Positions 3,574 to 9,675 of a DNA stretch of 10,013 bases are shown one piece after another. A program made the translations under genes and the position numbers. Within the stretch, counting starts at the first letter, position 1. Each line of letters opens with the position of its first letter. Below the pieces are notes generated by a model that searched no databases, was not told the DNA's origin, and was given only the letters and a program-made list of their open reading frames with translations. The stretch comes from a virus (lineage: Duplodnaviria; Heunggongvirae; Uroviricota; Caudoviricetes): IMG/VR virus record IMGVR_UViG_2740892372_000013, positions 1-10,013 of that record; one strand, given 5' to 3'.

Positions 3574-3746
3574 TCATCGCCCCACTCATCACAATATGCT
3601 TCGACCGGATTTTTTCCTGCTTCATAATCATCACGCCATGCTTCAGCATCAGCAGCACTGCCACCACGTAACTCTGCATATTCCATTAACAGTTCATGCC
3701 ATTCTTCAAAACTGACGCTGTATTTAGTTGAACCAAAATCAGCCAT
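3570..3746 (-). CDS. Small acidic hypothetical protein (58 aa)
   Basis: MADFGSTKYSVSFEEWHELLMEYAELRGGSAADAEAWRDDYEAGKNPVEAYCDEWGDE. Start overlaps the end of acidic ORF B by 8 nt; stop overlaps the Ead-like ATG. Not in the ORF track (under 60 aa). Confidence 0.4.
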   Translation of the reverse strand: MADFGSTKYSVSFEEWHELLMEYAELRGGSAADAEAWRDDYEAGKNPVEAYCDEWGDE

Positions 3747-3921
3747 TTTGTTCTTCCTCTTCGTCTTTTATTTCGTGATATGAATAATTGCAGTAGTTAA
3801 AGAAAATATCTTTTGCTTCGTCATGTATTTCATCAGGCGTCGCATCATCATCCACTTCGAATTCATCCTCGAAATCTCCACCGGCTATTCCCGTTTCAAT
3901 AATTATTTTAAACTTTCGCAT
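3739..3921 (-). CDS. Small highly acidic protein, copy B (60 aa)
   Basis: ORF track entry; roughly 40 percent Asp/Glu. Conserved with copy A through synonymous-only changes except the C-terminal stop/Gln difference. Confidence 0.55.
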   Translation of the reverse strand: MRKFKIIIETGIAGGDFEDEFEVDDDATPDEIHDEAKDIFFNYCNYSYHEIKDEEEEQNG

Positions 3922-3968
3922 TTAACTACCGCCCTGCCGGACAGCCTCCTGATGTTCTGAGGGCGCCT

Positions 3969-3977
3969 CCCCCCCCC
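3969..3977. repeat. Homopolymeric C9 tract, paralogue of the C10 tract
   Basis: Nine consecutive C at the position equivalent to 2471-2480. Confidence 0.9.
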
Positions 3978-4016
3978 TCCGGTTAAGGATTAAATTTTTA
4001 ACAGAGCTAAATTTAA

Positions 4017-4373
4017 TTATTCAGTTCTGGATTTTGTCGCCCTGCGTATCCGCGCTTTCGCGTTACGCTCAATCTGAATTAGCTTTTCTATATTTTTTCG
4101 CCTTTCCCGCTCCTCCTGACGCAAGAGCCTTACATCATCTGCCAGTCTGGTTTCTCTTTTCGCCACAGAGAGCATCCAGTCAAATGGCTCCACAACTGCA
4201 CCGCAGATTTTACAGCGGACCTGACGCTCTTTTTCGTCAACCCGGACAGAGGCGTGATGGCAATATGGTCTTTCCGATGGCTCATAAAGAAAATTAACCT
4301 GATTACGTGGGTCATCCTCTTTTACCGGAAATAAAACAATATTACTTAACTCATCTTCTGGTTTTATTTCCAT
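4017..4373 (-). CDS. Hypothetical zinc-ribbon-like basic protein, copy B (118 aa; ORF track extends it to a GTG at 4430)
   Basis: Same protein as copy A. The ATG at 4373 has GGAGAGG directly upstream and is the start shared with copy A, so the 19-codon upstream extension is probably not translated. Confidence 0.7.
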   Translation of the reverse strand: MEIKPEDELSNIVLFPVKEDDPRNQVNFLYEPSERPYCHHASVRVDEKERQVRCKICGAVVEPFDWMLSVAKRETRLADDVRLLRQEERERRKNIEKLIQIERNAKARIRRATKSRTE

Positions 4374-4445
4374 GCACCTCTCCTTTGATGCGAATGCCAG
4401 CGGCAATTGAAGCCTGATAGCTAATTTCACTCACAGCACCACCTC

Positions 4446-5645: not shown

Positions 5646-6308
5646 TCAGACAAAACCAGCCGCTTTCCGGCGTTCATACTCCTGTTTCAGCAACTCAATT
5701 GGCGTTGGTCCCAACGGGCGTTTTGGTGCCGCCAGTTGTCGCCGTACTGGCGGAACGCTCATCCCGTTACCAACATGCTTTGCCCATTTCGTCAGTTGCC
5801 GTTCCGCAAGTCGTTTTAACTCGCCCTGCGTCATCTGGCGCTCAATCCCTCTGGTACGCATTTCGAGGCAGATGTGGTACAGCACAGGCTGTGGCCACGG
5901 GTATTTATCACTCCCGTCGTATCGCCAAGATTCATTGCGCCAGCGCCGATACTCTTCCATCACGGCATCCACCGTAAGACCAAATGGATTTGCCCCACTC
6001 TCCGAAATCAGCGCAACAAACTCAGCCAGGTCCGGGGGCCACGTTTCACCCGCCCGGCAGCGGTCCATGCACTGACGGCACACCAGACGGATTTGCTGTT
6101 CAGTCATCGCACCAATCTGGGCAATCCAGAGCTTCGAAGGTGCGGCCCCGTTCTTCTGAGTCCAGCGGTTCGAATACACCTCCCCCATGAGCTCCCACAG
6201 CTTCCAGGCCGTTTCCGTTGCTGATAAATCCGTTGTCACGTTCCCACTGTTCGCGTGCAGCCCGGATTTCCTGAACTGCCCGTGATGCCGTGCCACCTGA
6301 TGCTGCAT
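5646..6308 (-). CDS. Lambda P-like replication protein (helicase loader); start codon uncertain
   Basis: By-eye alignment to lambda P: WPPDLAEFVALISE versus FLPSPGQFVAWCRE, DKYPWPQPVLYHICLEM versus ESYPWKSNAHYWLVTNL, and the GELKRLAERQ...PPVRRQLA tail. The track start at 6308 has a GGGGGAAG ribosome-binding site but overlaps the O-like gene by 209 nt; in-frame ATGs at 6188 and 6107 are alternatives. Confidence 0.7.
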   Translation of the reverse strand: MQHQVARHHGQFRKSGLHANSGNVTTDLSATETAWKLWELMGEVYSNRWTQKNGAAPSKLWIAQIGAMTEQQIRLVCRQCMDRCRAGETWPPDLAEFVALISESGANPFGLTVDAVMEEYRRWRNESWRYDGSDKYPWPQPVLYHICLEMRTRGIERQMTQGELKRLAERQLTKWAKHVGNGMSVPPVRRQLAAPKRPLGPTPIELLKQEYERRKAAGFV

Positions 6309-7137
6309 GGCTTCCCCCCTTGCTGACTGGTTTTACCTGTGCCCTGACGTGCTGCACGTGGCGGGCAAATTTCTGCTCCCACTGAACCTGCGTGAAAACC
6401 TTCCCCTCCGCCATCCAGTAATCCCGGAATGCGGCAAGCTCAGCAGGTGTAAATTCCGGCTCAGGCAGAGCCATACCCCACACTGCTGCCCGTTGTCGAA
6501 AATCCGGCGACGGCTGCCAGACAGTAGTCATCGAAAATTTCCCGATCGGTTCGCTCAGGCCGTCCAGGTATTCAGGTTCGGCTGTCTGCAACGGCGCACC
6601 ATTCGACTCACTGGTCGGAATACTCTCGCGCGCGTTATGTGTGGGGTTTAATTCTGTATCTGTATCTGTATCTTTATCTGTCGTGACTTGTCGTGACAGA
6701 TGCGTGACACGTCGTGACTCATCGTGACAATCAGCATTATGTTTCCGCAGCTTTTCCCGCTCCCGCTGCGCTCTCTTGCGCTCTGCCGGGGATTTTGCCG
6801 TTTGCGAAACGTTACCATTGTCCTCTTTCAGCACCTGACGTTTTTCCCATCCGGAAATAAGGTCACCATCCAGAACCCGCCCCTGCATTGCATGCAAAAT
6901 TGAATCAATTACGTCTTCCGTCACATCAAGCGCACTTGCTAAATCTTCCGTCGTGACATCAATGTGACCACGTAGTGACACGCCGTGACATGTCGTGACA
7001 TTTCGTGACGCGCTCACCAGAAGATGGATATACACTGCCATCACTGTTGCGATTGGCTGTCCTGATACCCTGGCAATCGTTCGCCACTTGGGGTCATTTG
7101 GCATGTCATGCCACAATCTGAGCCAGGCATTAGCCAT
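6100..7137 (-). CDS. Replication initiator (O-like) protein, about 345 aa (track lists a GTG at 7143)
   Basis: Sits immediately upstream of the P-like gene. Has a low-complexity acidic linker (TDKDTDTDTE...) and two internal arrays of iteron-like repeats in its 5' half, as for ori inside lambda O. ATG at 7137 preceded by AGAGGTGA. Confidence 0.6.
   Translation of the reverse strand: MANAWLRLWHDMPNDPKWRTIARVSGQPIATVMAVYIHLLVSASRNVTTCHGVSLRGHIDVTTEDLASALDVTEDVIDSILHAMQGRVLDGDLISGWEKRQVLKEDNGNVSQTAKSPAERKRAQREREKLRKHNADCHDESRRVTHLSRQVTTDKDTDTDTELNPTHNARESIPTSESNGAPLQTAEPEYLDGLSEPIGKFSMTTVWQPSPDFRQRAAVWGMALPEPEFTPAELAAFRDYWMAEGKVFTQVQWEQKFARHVQHVRAQVKPVSKGGSHAASGGTASRAVQEIRAAREQWERDNGFISNGNGLEAVGAHGGGVFEPLDSEERGRTFEALDCPDWCDD
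6651..6728. repeat. Iteron-like array 1: three TCTGTA hexamers followed by five (T/G)CGTGAC heptamers at 10-11 bp spacing
   Basis: CGTGAC at 6682, 6692, 6703, 6713 and 6723. TCTGTA at 6653, 6659 and 6665. Confidence 0.8.
6951..7009. repeat. Iteron-like array 2: six GTGAC-core repeats at 10-11 bp spacing
   Basis: GTGAC cores at 6953, 6964, 6975, 6985, 6995 and 7005, all on the same strand. Confidence 0.8.
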
Positions 7138-7205
7138 ACTCACCTCTTCTGATACCGAACTTTACCCACGAACTTCCGAAAGAAATCCGGTATAAATATT
7201 GTTGG

Positions 7206-7631
7206 TCAATGCACAACAACTGCATTACCAGGCTGACCACCACTGTTAGTCAGGGTGCCCCAGGCGATCGCTACAGCGACAAAATCATCCACATCTTTCA
7301 CCAGCCGATCCCGTCGTTCGACGATCTCCCGGTAATATTCAGAACTGTGACTGCGCATACGGGCCACCAGCAAAGGCGGCATCGCCTTTTCGATCGCCGG
7401 TAACAGCGCCTGAATTTTTTCAACCGCATCAGGCGTATCCTTCTCCACCCAGCGGAAAATTTTCTGGGTATTACGGGCCAGGGCTTCCGGATGGCTGTCG
7501 TCGTACAGTTCCGGGAACGTCATCCCAAGTTCGAAATAAGTCCGGGCTATTTCAGCTGCAGGCACTTTCTCACCATCAGGATATGCCCAGGCATTCATCG
7601 CCATGCGGATGTGTTCATGTTTGATTTTCAT
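7206..7631 (-). CDS. YdaT-family prophage regulator (CII-position protein), 141 aa
   Basis: Starts MKIKHEHI and ends VVVH, as I recall for YdaT-family proteins. Lies directly downstream of the cro-like gene with an ATGA start/stop overlap, as in the ydaS-ydaT arrangement. Confidence 0.55.
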   Translation of the reverse strand: MKIKHEHIRMAMNAWAYPDGEKVPAAEIARTYFELGMTFPELYDDSHPEALARNTQKIFRWVEKDTPDAVEKIQALLPAIEKAMPPLLVARMRSHSSEYYREIVERRDRLVKDVDDFVAVAIAWGTLTNSGGQPGNAVVVH

Positions 7632-7855
7632 GAATCATTTTTCCTTTCGTTCGAGGTGTTATCCTTCTTTTTGTAAAGTTCTGGGTTCAACGATAATTTT
7701 CCCTTGGAGTATGCAACTGCTTCAGCAGCCCTCCCCTTGGGAACTATTTCGCCGGGACGCTTACGCCACATGTATATAGCTTCTCGGGTTACCCCATAAA
7801 AATCAGCGACTCTTTGGACAGAACCAAAAAACTGGACAAGTTCATCAACTCGCAT
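7628..7855 (-). CDS. Cro/DicC-like small HTH repressor (75 aa)
   Basis: Divergent from the cI-like gene. Motif FFGSVQRVADFYGVTREAIYMWRK is typical of Cro/YdaS/DicC HTH proteins. AGGAGA ribosome-binding site. Confidence 0.7.
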   Translation of the reverse strand: MRVDELVQFFGSVQRVADFYGVTREAIYMWRKRPGEIVPKGRAAEAVAYSKGKLSLNPELYKKKDNTSNERKNDS

Positions 7856-7954
7856 TTCGCTCTCCTTAAAACTAAGTATTTTTAGATTAAAGGGTAATTT
7901 TTTTTAGGTCAATACAATCTAAAATAATTTATATTCAATTCGCGGGAGAAAATA
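7856..7954. promoter_or_regulatory. Divergent promoter/operator region (OR-like) between the cro-like and cI-like genes
   Basis: TTGACC on the minus strand (7907-7912). 17-mer AAATAATTTATATTCAA (7922-7938) overlaps a TATATT -10 for cI (7930-7935). Inverted repeat TTTTAGATT (7880-7888) / AATCTAAAA (7916-7924). Confidence 0.5.
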
Positions 7955-8599
7955 ATGGAAAGCCTTGGCATTAGGCTTAAGAAACTCAGAAAAGACAAAG
8001 GTCTGACCCAAGTTGAACTTGGCAAGCTTTCTGGCGTAACTGGGGTAACAATAGGATACTGGGAGAAAGATCTAAACGAACCAGGTAGCAAAGCTCTTAG
8101 TAAATTAGCCCTAGCACTAGGCACTACTGAGTCCTATCTCCTGTATGGAGTATCATCACCTGAATCATCCCTTGTGCAGAAAAATCCAGGTACCCAAATC
8201 CCATACCTTTCTTGGGGAGAAGCGATTTCTTTCCTAATATTAAAAGGAGAGAAAACTATGGGAAATGTCGACAGGATCACCACATTCTTTGATGTCAAGG
8301 AGGGAGATTTTGCCGTTTCAATGCCTGATGATACTATGCACAATCCATCAGGGTCCCCAAGCATTCCAGTTGGAGCCACAGTGATCATGAGGCCTGGCGA
8401 AAAATATAAAAATGGTAGCATCGTCGCAGTAATAGTCCCAGATCCACTCACAAACGAACCATCCATGACTATAAAAAAATTAGTTATTGATGGAAAGCTC
8501 GTGTACTTAGCCCCCCTTAACCCACGCTATCAATCATCCTTACTTACACCGGAATGTAACATCGTTGCTGTAGCAAAAGGTGTTCAGTTCAGCCTCTAG
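7955..8599 (+). CDS. CI-like phage repressor (N-terminal XRE HTH plus C-terminal S24 LexA-type autopeptidase domain), 214 aa
   Basis: HTH LTQVELGKLSGVTGVTIGYWEK. S24 signature Ser in FAVSMPDD and Lys in TIKKLVIDG. Divergent to the cro-like gene. Confidence 0.85.
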   Translation: MESLGIRLKKLRKDKGLTQVELGKLSGVTGVTIGYWEKDLNEPGSKALSKLALALGTTESYLLYGVSSPESSLVQKNPGTQIPYLSWGEAISFLILKGEKTMGNVDRITTFFDVKEGDFAVSMPDDTMHNPSGSPSIPVGATVIMRPGEKYKNGSIVAVIVPDPLTNEPSMTIKKLVIDGKLVYLAPLNPRYQSSLLTPECNIVAVAKGVQFSL

Positions 8600-8650
8600 C
8601 TCCCGCTTTGCCCTGTAATCAGAGGTCGGCTTTGTCGGCCTTTTATCTTA

Positions 8651-8699
8651 AAAATATTTATATTCAACTTGACAGCAAAACTAAATATTCTTATATTCA
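8651..8699 (+). promoter_or_regulatory. PL-like early promoter with two flanking operator-like repeats
   Basis: TTGACA (8669-8674), 17-nt spacer, TATATT (8692-8697). AAAATATTTATATTCAA (8651-8667) and AAATATTCTTATATTCA (8683-8699) closely match the 17-mer at 7922-7938. Confidence 0.5.
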
Positions 8700-8872
8700 T
8701 TGCAACCCACCCCGCTTCACAGAATGCAGGGCAATACTTCGAGTTACCCGGCAGTGGTCAGGGGTTAAGTAGCCAGCCCGAGGCGTATGAACATGACGGC
8801 GGGAACACTTTGTATAACAGCGCAGCAGGTTTTTAGTTCCGCGACCCGGCGTTAAGGGGGAATGAGGTCAAC

Positions 8873-9025
8873 ATGGATACGCTCAATCTTGGCAACAACG
8901 AATCTCTGGTATGCGGCGTGTTTCCCAACCAGGACGGTACGTTCACCGCGATGACGTATACCAAAAGCAAAACGTTTAAAACTGAAGCTGGCGCGCGTCG
9001 CTGGTTAGCCAGAAACACTGACTGA
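8873..9025 (+). CDS. Small hypothetical early protein (50 aa)
   Basis: MDTLNLGNNESLVCGVFPNQDGTFTAMTYTKSKTFKTEAGARRWLARNTD. GAGGT ribosome-binding site 4 nt before the ATG; TGATG stop/start overlap with the next gene. Reminiscent of small YdfA/YdaF-type prophage proteins, from memory only. Confidence 0.45.
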   Translation: MDTLNLGNNESLVCGVFPNQDGTFTAMTYTKSKTFKTEAGARRWLARNTD

Positions 9026-9675
9026 TGAGGTTGACGATGGAATTTAAAGATTTACCTCCTTCAATCCAGGAGATTGCAGCACACACACTTCGTCATCGTC
9101 TGAACGAACTTGAATTGGAATCGGTAACGAAAAAAGACACTGATAATATGGCTCGTAATGTGCGCGATGCGTTTACCGGATTGTATTTCTGTGCGTCTAT
9201 AAATAAACACGACTCAGAGAGTATGGCAAATAAAATTGCAGAAACGACAGCGCAAAACATCAATACGAAACCAACGGAAGAAGAAATTGATCAGTTTGCT
9301 CATGATGCTGGTTTAAAAAACAAGAAAGAAAAATCGCCATATGCGGGGAACATGTTTGTTTATGACAATCTCATCAGAATTCGTGGCGAAATTCCGGCGG
9401 AATACCTGGCAAGAGTCCATCAGGCATTGCTTAAAAATTTGGAAACAGAATTATTTGATGGCAACACTAACGGTTTCTTCATGGTATCAGGCCTTGAGAA
9501 AGACTGGGATGCAGAAAAACGCTGGAATGTTGCTACATGGTTATTCAGTAACAGAGCCGCTGCACTGGAAGCTTCGGCATGTATTTGCGGCCTGTTCTTA
9601 ACAGACCACAAATATAATCTGGATGTGTACAGTTATATTTACGCTGAACACGGTCCACTCTGGATTGACTGGTAA
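9025..9675 (+). CDS. Hypothetical early-left operon protein (216 aa; the ATG at 9037 with GAGG upstream may be the true start)
   Basis: Long ORF, translationally coupled to the preceding small ORF. No recognisable motifs. Confidence 0.55.
   Translation: MRLTMEFKDLPPSIQEIAAHTLRHRLNELELESVTKKDTDNMARNVRDAFTGLYFCASINKHDSESMANKIAETTAQNINTKPTEEEIDQFAHDAGLKNKKEKSPYAGNMFVYDNLIRIRGEIPAEYLARVHQALLKNLETELFDGNTNGFFMVSGLEKDWDAEKRWNVATWLFSNRAAALEASACICGLFLTDHKYNLDVYSYIYAEHGPLWIDW

Follow-up and report, generated by a model that had tools for sequence, protein, structure and literature searches.

The element that recurs in the intergenic regions on both sides of the repressor gene of this prophage most probably represents the operators of its CI/Cro immunity switch, in the form of 20-bp imperfect palindromes around a variable, A/T-rich centre of 4 bp; judged from the sequence comparisons presented here, we put the probability of this reading at roughly 80%. 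The window, i.e. the whole analysed stretch of 10,013 nt, belongs to a lambdoid prophage of E. coli and is 100% identical to strain 2014C-3051. Its segment 7600–8900 is found with at least 80% coverage in 474 out of 5426 complete E. coli genomes, O157:H7 strains included. On the minus strand lie the genes for a DnaT-domain replication protein (6100–7143; gene list and Pfam), a YdaT-family protein (7206–7631; Pfam PF06254) and a Cro-like protein of 75 aa belonging to the P22_Cro family (7628–7855; Pfam). A gap of 99 bp separates the cro gene from the divergently oriented gene for a CI-like repressor of 214 aa (7955–8599, plus strand), in which Pfam recognizes an N-terminal HTH_3 and a C-terminal Peptidase_S24-like domain. 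Further downstream a ydfA-like gene (DUF1391; 8873–9025, plus strand; Pfam and annotation of relatives) is the first in the PL-like operon. This gene order is the cro-PR/PRM-cI-PL layout which the first-pass annotation had assumed. YdaT is the functional equivalent of CII (PMC9986795, PMC8630535). The "Cro" controlling the LEE locus of EHEC was considered as a counterpart of the Cro-like protein and rejected, as it is the OI-45 protein, a different one.

The promoter and terminator scan reported one signal here, the PL-like early promoter (8669–8697, plus strand). It consists of TTGACA at 8669–8674, a spacer of 17 nt and TATATT at 8692–8697, and matches the consensus in 11 of 12 positions. The -35 has been conserved in relatives. 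This promoter is predicted to drive ydfA, from which it is separated by a leader of about 170 nt, together with the downstream genes. Two weaker promoters, which remained below the threshold of the scan, and the terminator of cI were assigned by eye. The inferred, PR-like promoter of cro (7884–7912, minus strand) has TTGACC at 7912–7907 and TAATCT at 7889–7884, separated by 17 nt, and both hexamers are conserved in the E. coli relatives. The inferred, PRM-like promoter of cI has a -10 element TATATT at 7930–7935 (plus strand), which is invariant in the E. coli relatives. It lacks a good -35, and this suggests that it depends on an activator. Transcription is predicted to start near 7877 (minus strand) at PR, near 7942 at PRM and near 8704 at PL. 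The cI transcript would end at an intrinsic terminator (8623–8649, plus strand) with the stem AGGTCGG/TCGGCCT, the loop CTTTG and a T-rich tail. This stem is imperfect in the window, but perfect in relatives, where AGGTCGG/CCGACCT is followed by T7-9.

In the first-pass annotation the shared element had been described as a 17-mer recurring at the cI/cro switch and at the PL-like promoter. All four copies are present in the sequence: AAATAATTTATATTCAA at 7922–7938, AAAATATTTATATTCAA at 8651–8667, AAATATTCTTATATTCA at 8683–8699 and, as a weak copy, AAGTATTTTTAGATTAA. The first three had been placed correctly, whereas the weak copy, given as 7873–7889, is off by one base and extends from 7874 to 7890. 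Their reported placement over the -10 elements of cI, cro and PL and just upstream of the PL -35 holds as well, with the PL-like hexamers coming from the scan and the cI and cro -10 elements from reading by eye. Flanked by CI-like, P22_Cro-family and YdaT genes, the element would thus stand in the layout expected for immunity operators, as had been proposed. When up to three mismatches are allowed, the 16-mer core matches three times in the window compared to 0.23 expected, a count reached by none of 200 shuffles, although one of the matches (9038–9053) is probably due to chance. Exact copies of the short core TATATTCA are limited to the places of the three stronger copies. As written, the 17-mers stand in two registers 1 nt apart, the first two starting at position 7 of the 20-bp site defined below and the other two at position 6. 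They omit the outer left half-site AAWCT and include a 3' CAA which is not conserved. Repeat finding extends two of the copies, those on the cro side and at the -10, leftward as AAAACTAAGTATTTTTAGATT and AAAACTAAATATTCTTATATT, and relates TTTTAGATT and AATCTAAAA inversely to each other.

The correct register is that of a 20-bp dyad-symmetric site of 8 + 4 + 8 bp with the consensus AAWCTAAA-N4-TTTAGWTT. The dyad AAWCTAAANNNNTTTAGWTT, with up to three mismatches, matches three times in the window, where 0.26 matches are expected. In the cI/cro region, the predicted OR-a (OR1-like), AAACTAAG-TATT-TTTAGATT, covers 7869–7888 and lies over the cro promoter, at its -10 and start region. It is kept in all E. 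coli lineages, and equivalent dyads exist in Arsenophonus and Xenorhabdus. The predicted OR-c (OR3-like), AATCTAAA-ATAA-TTTATATT, is located at 7916–7935, its right half containing the cI promoter -10 TATATT; 19 of its 20 positions are invariant across 26 distinct E. coli upstream sequences, and position 1 reads G in one variant (L052). Between the two a weak middle site (OR2-like), AGGGTAAT-TTTT-TTTAGGTC, which the first-pass annotation had missed, is predicted at 7891–7910 over the cro promoter -35. It has two mismatches to the inner core CTAAA-N4-TTTAG, its centre lies at about -41.5 from the inferred start site of cI, and Xenorhabdus has a better dyad, ATCCTAATTTCATTTAGATC, at this position. 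Overlap of the OR sites with promoters is stated here relative to the hexamers assigned by eye.

At the early-left promoter, the predicted OL1, ATCTTAAA-AATA-TTTATATT (8645–8664), ends 5 bp upstream of the PL-like -35, and the predicted OL2, AAACTAAA-TATT-CTTATATT (8678–8697), covers the spacer and the -10. The two are spaced 33 bp apart and flank the -35. OL1 has four mismatches to the consensus, with its right half and the inner TAAA conserved in relatives; its counterpart in Arsenophonus is AAACAAAATATATTTAGTTT. Since the left half doubles as the T-run of the cI terminator, it is degenerate. OL2 corresponds to zero-mismatch dyads in relatives, with TACT, TAGA, TTAT or TTAA as the central 4 bp, and in one lineage its half-sites are fully complementary. 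The sites at 7869, 7916 and 8678 have one or two mismatches to the consensus and those at 8645 and 7891 are weaker. The left half of OL1 and the middle OR site match so poorly that these two may not be full sites, and among the five the middle site at 7891–7910 is the least certain.

The first-pass annotation had called the motif not obviously palindromic and had considered asymmetric or direct-repeat binding sites. Such a model, in which the repressor recognizes an asymmetric 17-bp element or direct repeats instead of a palindrome, has a precedent in the C repressor of phage P2 (PMC2995052). It would also fit that all sites have the same orientation with a consistent difference between the left (AAACTAAR) and the right half (TTTAKATT), and that the symmetry is weak here, since the right halves mostly have T at position 17. 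Indeed, T instead of G stands at this position in three of the four stronger right halves, which makes the palindrome less obvious than in relatives; both OL sites carry T17 in the lineage of the window, but G17 in most relatives. However, a matrix built from 26 unique strong sites has high information at positions 1–8 and 13–20 and low information at 9–12 and in the flanks. The left half and the reverse complement of the right half are similar with a cosine of 0.95, whereas shifted axes yield at most 0.63, so that the mirror axis is sharp. This statistic is partly circular, as the sites found with the E. coli consensus had also served to build it, and the sites of other genera were first located with a palindromic pattern. 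The circularity is reduced, though not removed, by an unbiased k-mer count and by the use of 17-mers which omit the outer left half. In the k-mer count over three clades, ATCTAA/TTAGAT and AACTAA/TTAGTT rank top, and CTAA and TTAG are repeatedly found 10 bp apart. The outer left AAWCT lies outside of the 17-mer, yet is conserved and mirrors the outer right AGWTT, while the 3' CAA belongs to the 17-mer and is not conserved. Several relatives have zero-mismatch dyads, AAACTAAATACTTTTAGATT and AAACTAAATAGATTTAGTTT, and the half-sites of AAACTAAATAGATTTAGTTT are fully complementary. Furthermore, the DNA-binding domain is homologous to that of P22 c2, a dimeric binder of symmetric sites. We therefore consider the asymmetric model very unlikely and reject it on the mirror conservation seen in the footprint, the matrix and the k-mers; the sites are 8-4-8 dyads once they are read in the right register.

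Relatives of CI were gathered from viral and genome collections. The E. coli lineages with a CI 91–100% identical to that of the window differ sufficiently in their intergenic DNA to be of use for a footprint, with 26 distinct sequences upstream of cI and 33 downstream of it. In this set the half-sites have been conserved, in contrast to the central 4 bp and the flanking bases, which vary. The centre of OL2 alone reads TATT, TACT, TAGA or TTAT among the E. coli prophages, and the bases 3' of the right half, which include the CAA of the 17-mers, vary freely. Prophages of Arsenophonus, Phlomobacter and Xenorhabdus, with CI proteins 46–53% identical, have the same dyads upstream of cI and also a pair of dyads, 33–35 bp apart, downstream of it. 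The distance of this pair from cI changes from +44/+77 in E. coli to +137/+172 and +784/+819 in two Xenorhabdus prophages. The recognition helix GV(T/S)GVT(I/V)GYWEKDLNEP is invariant in the CI proteins of E. coli, Arsenophonus, Phlomobacter and Xenorhabdus. The lineages with a CI of 93–94% identity have the same helix-turn-helix motif (recognition helix) as the window type, and on this ground they are predicted to be homoimmune with it. Cro homologues adjoin the CI homologues in the prophages of other genera (Arsenophonus, Xenorhabdus). The motif is present with every CI homologue examined, and in every lineage examined CI and Cro homologues co-occur with it. A consensus derived from Arsenophonus and Xenorhabdus only, AAACTAARNNNNYTTAGWTT, matches in the 10-kb window just at 7869, 7916 and 8678, each time on both strands.

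The recurrence might also come from promoter composition, with the element as a generic AT-rich promoter feature made up of -10-like hexamers and UP-like tracts; that the motif also occurs at unrelated promoters had been named in the first-pass annotation as the finding that would speak against operators. The right half-sites do coincide with the -10 hexamers TATATT at 7930 and 8692, the G+C content of both intergenic regions is only 20–25%, and TATATTCA with one mismatch is not enriched in the window (15 matches versus 10.2 expected). But when the AT-rich intergenic DNA is shuffled 3000 times by dinucleotides, the consensus of the other genera finds on average 0.015 matches, and not one of these shuffles reaches the observed count. 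The OL1 copy lies upstream of the -35, and its TATATT belongs to no assigned promoter; likewise, the conserved C4 and G17 are no promoter features. The motif also follows the CI type across genera and in spite of the changed distances from cI. Homology between the window and heteroimmune prophages sets in at about 8686–8718. As heteroimmune controls three loci were chosen, Rac (RacR), a prophage of E2348/69 and a locus of the CP-933P type, which has a toxin-antitoxin pair. These three share the sequence from about 8705 onward, and their homologous PL promoters drive the same leader. When up to four mismatches were allowed, the motif was found in none of the three; each has its own, different repeats around the promoter. 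It is therefore absent from heteroimmune promoters with the common leader and belongs to the immunity module and not to the promoter type. Judged by the local shuffles, the heteroimmune loci and the co-travel across genera, a generic promoter feature is extremely improbable and was rejected. The refuting condition of a generic feature, named in the first-pass annotation, is thereby answered. Symmetry, conservation and repressor-type specificity of the sites, like the sites themselves, are direct observations.

The leader itself, at 8705–8860, is almost invariant across heteroimmune prophages, and more than 3400 E. coli genomes match the window only in this leader downstream of the PL-like promoter. 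We considered it as a structured or put-like antiterminator RNA, but rejected this on the results for folding, covariation, Rfam and HK022. The folding energy of 8705–8860 is no better than that of shuffles (z = +1.16), no Rfam family was matched, and no nucleotide similarity to HK022 was found. There is essentially no covariation within it, because the sequences are nearly invariant.

Comparison with known phages places the operators next to those of P22 with regard to architecture. The nearest solved structure for the N-terminal domain of CI is the N-terminal domain of P22 c2 (E about 1e-6), and for the C-terminal domain it is that of lambda CI. The window resembles P22 by the c2-like N-terminal domain, the Cro of the P22_Cro family and the conserved half-sites around a variable, A/T-rich 4-bp centre; the c2 homology, the 8-4-8 dyads and the low information at positions 9–12 correspond to operators of the P22 c2 type. 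With regard to immunity specificity the two differ: the recognition helix deviates at several aligned positions, with the residues VTGVTIGYWEKD here versus VSNVAISQWERS in P22, and the half-site is AAWCTAAA in the window and ATTTAAG in P22. Furthermore, the window has five sites (3 + 2) instead of six, CII is replaced by YdaT, and neither the catalytic Ser nor the Ala-Gly site is found in the peptidase domain of CI. P22 has six operator sites of 18 bp with rotational symmetry, bound by a dimer of the c2 repressor, which contacts their outer bases but not their central 4 bp (PMC4267663).

The DicA/DicC system of the Qin prophage of E. coli K-12 is similar in that a PL-type promoter, which drives ydfA...dicB, lies downstream of the repressor gene. 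The operator Oc of DicA is a 20-nt inverted repeat of the same 8-4-8 form, TTGTTAGT-CATA-ACTAACAA (PMC3441716), but its half-site sequence is unlike that of the window. DicA represses dicC and activates dicA from Oc, which is the only one among the sites shown to bind DicA. Unlike the CI of the window, DicA is a protein of 135 aa which lacks an S24-like domain at its C-terminus (PMC10448788). In CP-933P of E. coli O157:H7 the repressor PaaR2 and the Cro-like YdaS are encoded divergently, together with YdaT, operators are repeated at PR/PRM and PL, a YdaT site is located at the ydaS/ydaT junction and the same conserved leader follows PL. Its operators, which number four in the intergenic region, were footprinted (PMC8630535) and are 18-bp palindromes with the half-site GTTTAGTAA, whereas those of the window are predicted from sequence. 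Consensus and spacing differ as well, and the motif is absent from the CP-933P-type locus described above, in which a toxin-antitoxin pair comes after the repressor gene. Identity with the operators of CP-933P or DicA was therefore rejected, as the sequences differ. Rac and CP-933P have the accessory set, consisting of YdaT and the conserved PL leader, in common with the window.

The overall arrangement is that of lambda, with three sites over the divergent PR/PRM, more at PL and the middle site at the position for PRM activation, and the C-terminal domain of CI is homologous. The operators of lambda have 17 bp with an odd central base and a sequence unrelated to that of the window, and lambda Cro belongs to a different fold family. 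The divergent CI and Cro genes, dyads at the promoters, further copies beyond cI and specificity to the immunity type place the window among the lambdoid OR/OL systems. No exact match to the operator strings was found in the literature searched. We regard the window as a normal lambdoid OR/OL layout with a new predicted sequence specificity within a well-known kind.

As the N-terminal domain is c2-like and the site architecture is that of P22 c2 and DicA, most likely one CI-like dimer would bind per site, with one helix-turn-helix per half-site, and these sites would most likely be shared by the P22_Cro-type Cro protein, following the example of P22 and lambda. In the prophage state, cro, ydaT and the replication gene would be shut off by CI bound to OR-a and the middle site, and the early-left operon beginning with ydfA by CI bound to OL1 and OL2. 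CI may at the same time sustain its own expression, as the middle site is located at about the distance at which lambda CI activates PRM, and Cro at OR-c would have the reverse effect. From these comparisons we infer the binding protein, the order in which the sites are occupied, PRM activation and any cooperativity or looping between OR and OL. The dyads might also be real binding sites of a single protein, i.e. Cro only, CI only, a host factor or YdaT, and then form no shared switch. In favour of this, in CP-933P the footprints of PaaR2 and YdaS overlap, with the exact bound sequences left open (PMC8630535). YdaT was rejected as the binder, as it is known to recognize another dyad, TTGATTN6AATCAA, at another place: the 10-kb window has a single near match, TTGATTTTCATGAATCAT at 7621–7638 with one mismatch, which is a candidate YdaT site at the cro/ydaT junction, the same place as that of the footprinted OM site of CP-933P (PMC9986795). 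Moreover, both CI and Cro homologues accompany the motif, and in lambda, P22 and CP-933P sites arranged in this way over PR, PRM and PL are common to CI and Cro. Binding by one of these proteins only is therefore unlikely, and operators common to CI and Cro remain the preferred reading.

The C-terminal domain of CI deserves attention with regard to induction. Ser149 of lambda CI aligns with a Thr (DDTM) in the CI of the window, while Lys192 is kept; at the position of Ala111-Gly112 an ungapped extension of the alignment reads Ala-Ile. The combination of a Ser-Lys dyad and an Ala-Gly scissile bond, which marks SOS-cleavable repressors of the CI/LexA type (Peptidase S24), is thus missing here, and the Xenorhabdus homologues have kept the Ser, but read Ala-Leu. 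In the operators, the -10 hexamers of PRM and PL coincide with right half-sites, and the T-run of the terminator with the left half of OL1. Tentatively, these features might mean that the peptidase-like domain is no longer self-cleaving and that the operators are fused to promoter and terminator signals, with T17 strengthening the promoter and weakening repressor binding; we consider this possible, but doubtful.

For the immunity type present in the 474 E. coli genomes, the results provide a testable predicted consensus, AAWCTAAA-N4-TTTAGWTT, together with a map of sites, which can be used for the annotation of prophage switches, for the prediction of homoimmunity and for the design of reporter or EMSA probes. 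The general understanding of such switches is unchanged, as P22 and DicA have the same architecture and lambda has the same layout. If the fusion of operator and promoter is true, a single exchange of G17 to T, turning TAGATT into TATATT, would strengthen the promoter and weaken repressor binding together. If CI is indeed not self-cleaving, prophages of this type would be induced by an antirepressor or another route, and not by RecA-stimulated cleavage.

In the window lineage the right half-sites of both putative 20-bp operators at the PL-like promoter, OL1 (8645-8664) and OL2 (8678-8697), read TATATT (8659-8664 and 8692-8697, respectively). In most relatives (L002, L041 and L066 were compared) TAGATT, TAGTTT or TAGATC is found at the OL right half-sites. 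With T at operator position 17, the window lineage has a better -10 hexamer at PL and a site that matches the operator consensus less well. The left half of OL1 is degenerate and is also the T-run of the cI terminator. This terminator (8623-8649) consists of a hairpin (AGGTCGG-CTTTG-TCGGCCT) followed by a T-rich tail. Its stem contains two G-U pairs in the window and is perfect in relatives (AGGTCGG/CCGACCT, then T7-9); an automatic terminator scan of the window missed it.

Between the PL-like promoter and ydfA lies a leader (8705-8860) that is nearly invariant among heteroimmune prophages, that is, those with other repressor types (Rac, E2348/69, CP-933P-type). Sequence from the leader/ydfA-start region matches 3460 of the 5426 complete E. 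coli genomes. For the leader no Rfam family was found, blastn gave no similarity to HK022, its folding was no better than that of shuffled sequences (z = +1.16), and the nearly invariant heteroimmune-prophage sequences offered no usable covariation.

A motif search across the whole window yielded a sole near match to the YdaT dyad TTGATTN6AATCAA, the candidate site TTGATTTTCATGAATCAT at 7621-7638, which has one mismatch and is located at the cro stop and ydaT start. Footprinting in CP-933P mapped OM, the principal YdaT site, to the equivalent place at the cro-like/ydaT junction (PMC9986795).

A match to the sok antitoxin RNA at 80-255 on the minus strand (Rfam RF01794, 117 bits) indicates a putative hok/sok-type module at the left end. 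On the plus strand at 496-1990, a PP2C-family phosphatase gene overlaps one for a Ser/Thr protein kinase of the eukaryotic type (Pkinase, E = 1e-31); the two look like a prophage accessory (moron-like) pair. Further downstream a segment is duplicated (2250-2876 and 3739-4430), with the copies about 1.5 kb apart and an Ead/Ea22-like gene between them; the two copies encode nearly identical versions of two proteins, one acidic (57-60 aa) and one with a zinc ribbon (118 aa).

Alignment of the CI-like protein of the window (7955-8599; its residues about 88-130 and 172-176) with lambda CI places Thr at the catalytic Ser149 of the S24-like domain (DDTM vs GNSM), and extending the alignment without gaps puts Ala-Ile at the Ala111-Gly112 cleavage site; the equivalent of Lys192 is retained. 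Xenorhabdus CI homologues possess the Ser (NDSM) and have Ala-Leu at the cleavage-site position. The CI-like repressor of the window may be non-cleavable by RecA. If so, an antirepressor-driven induction would be indicated.
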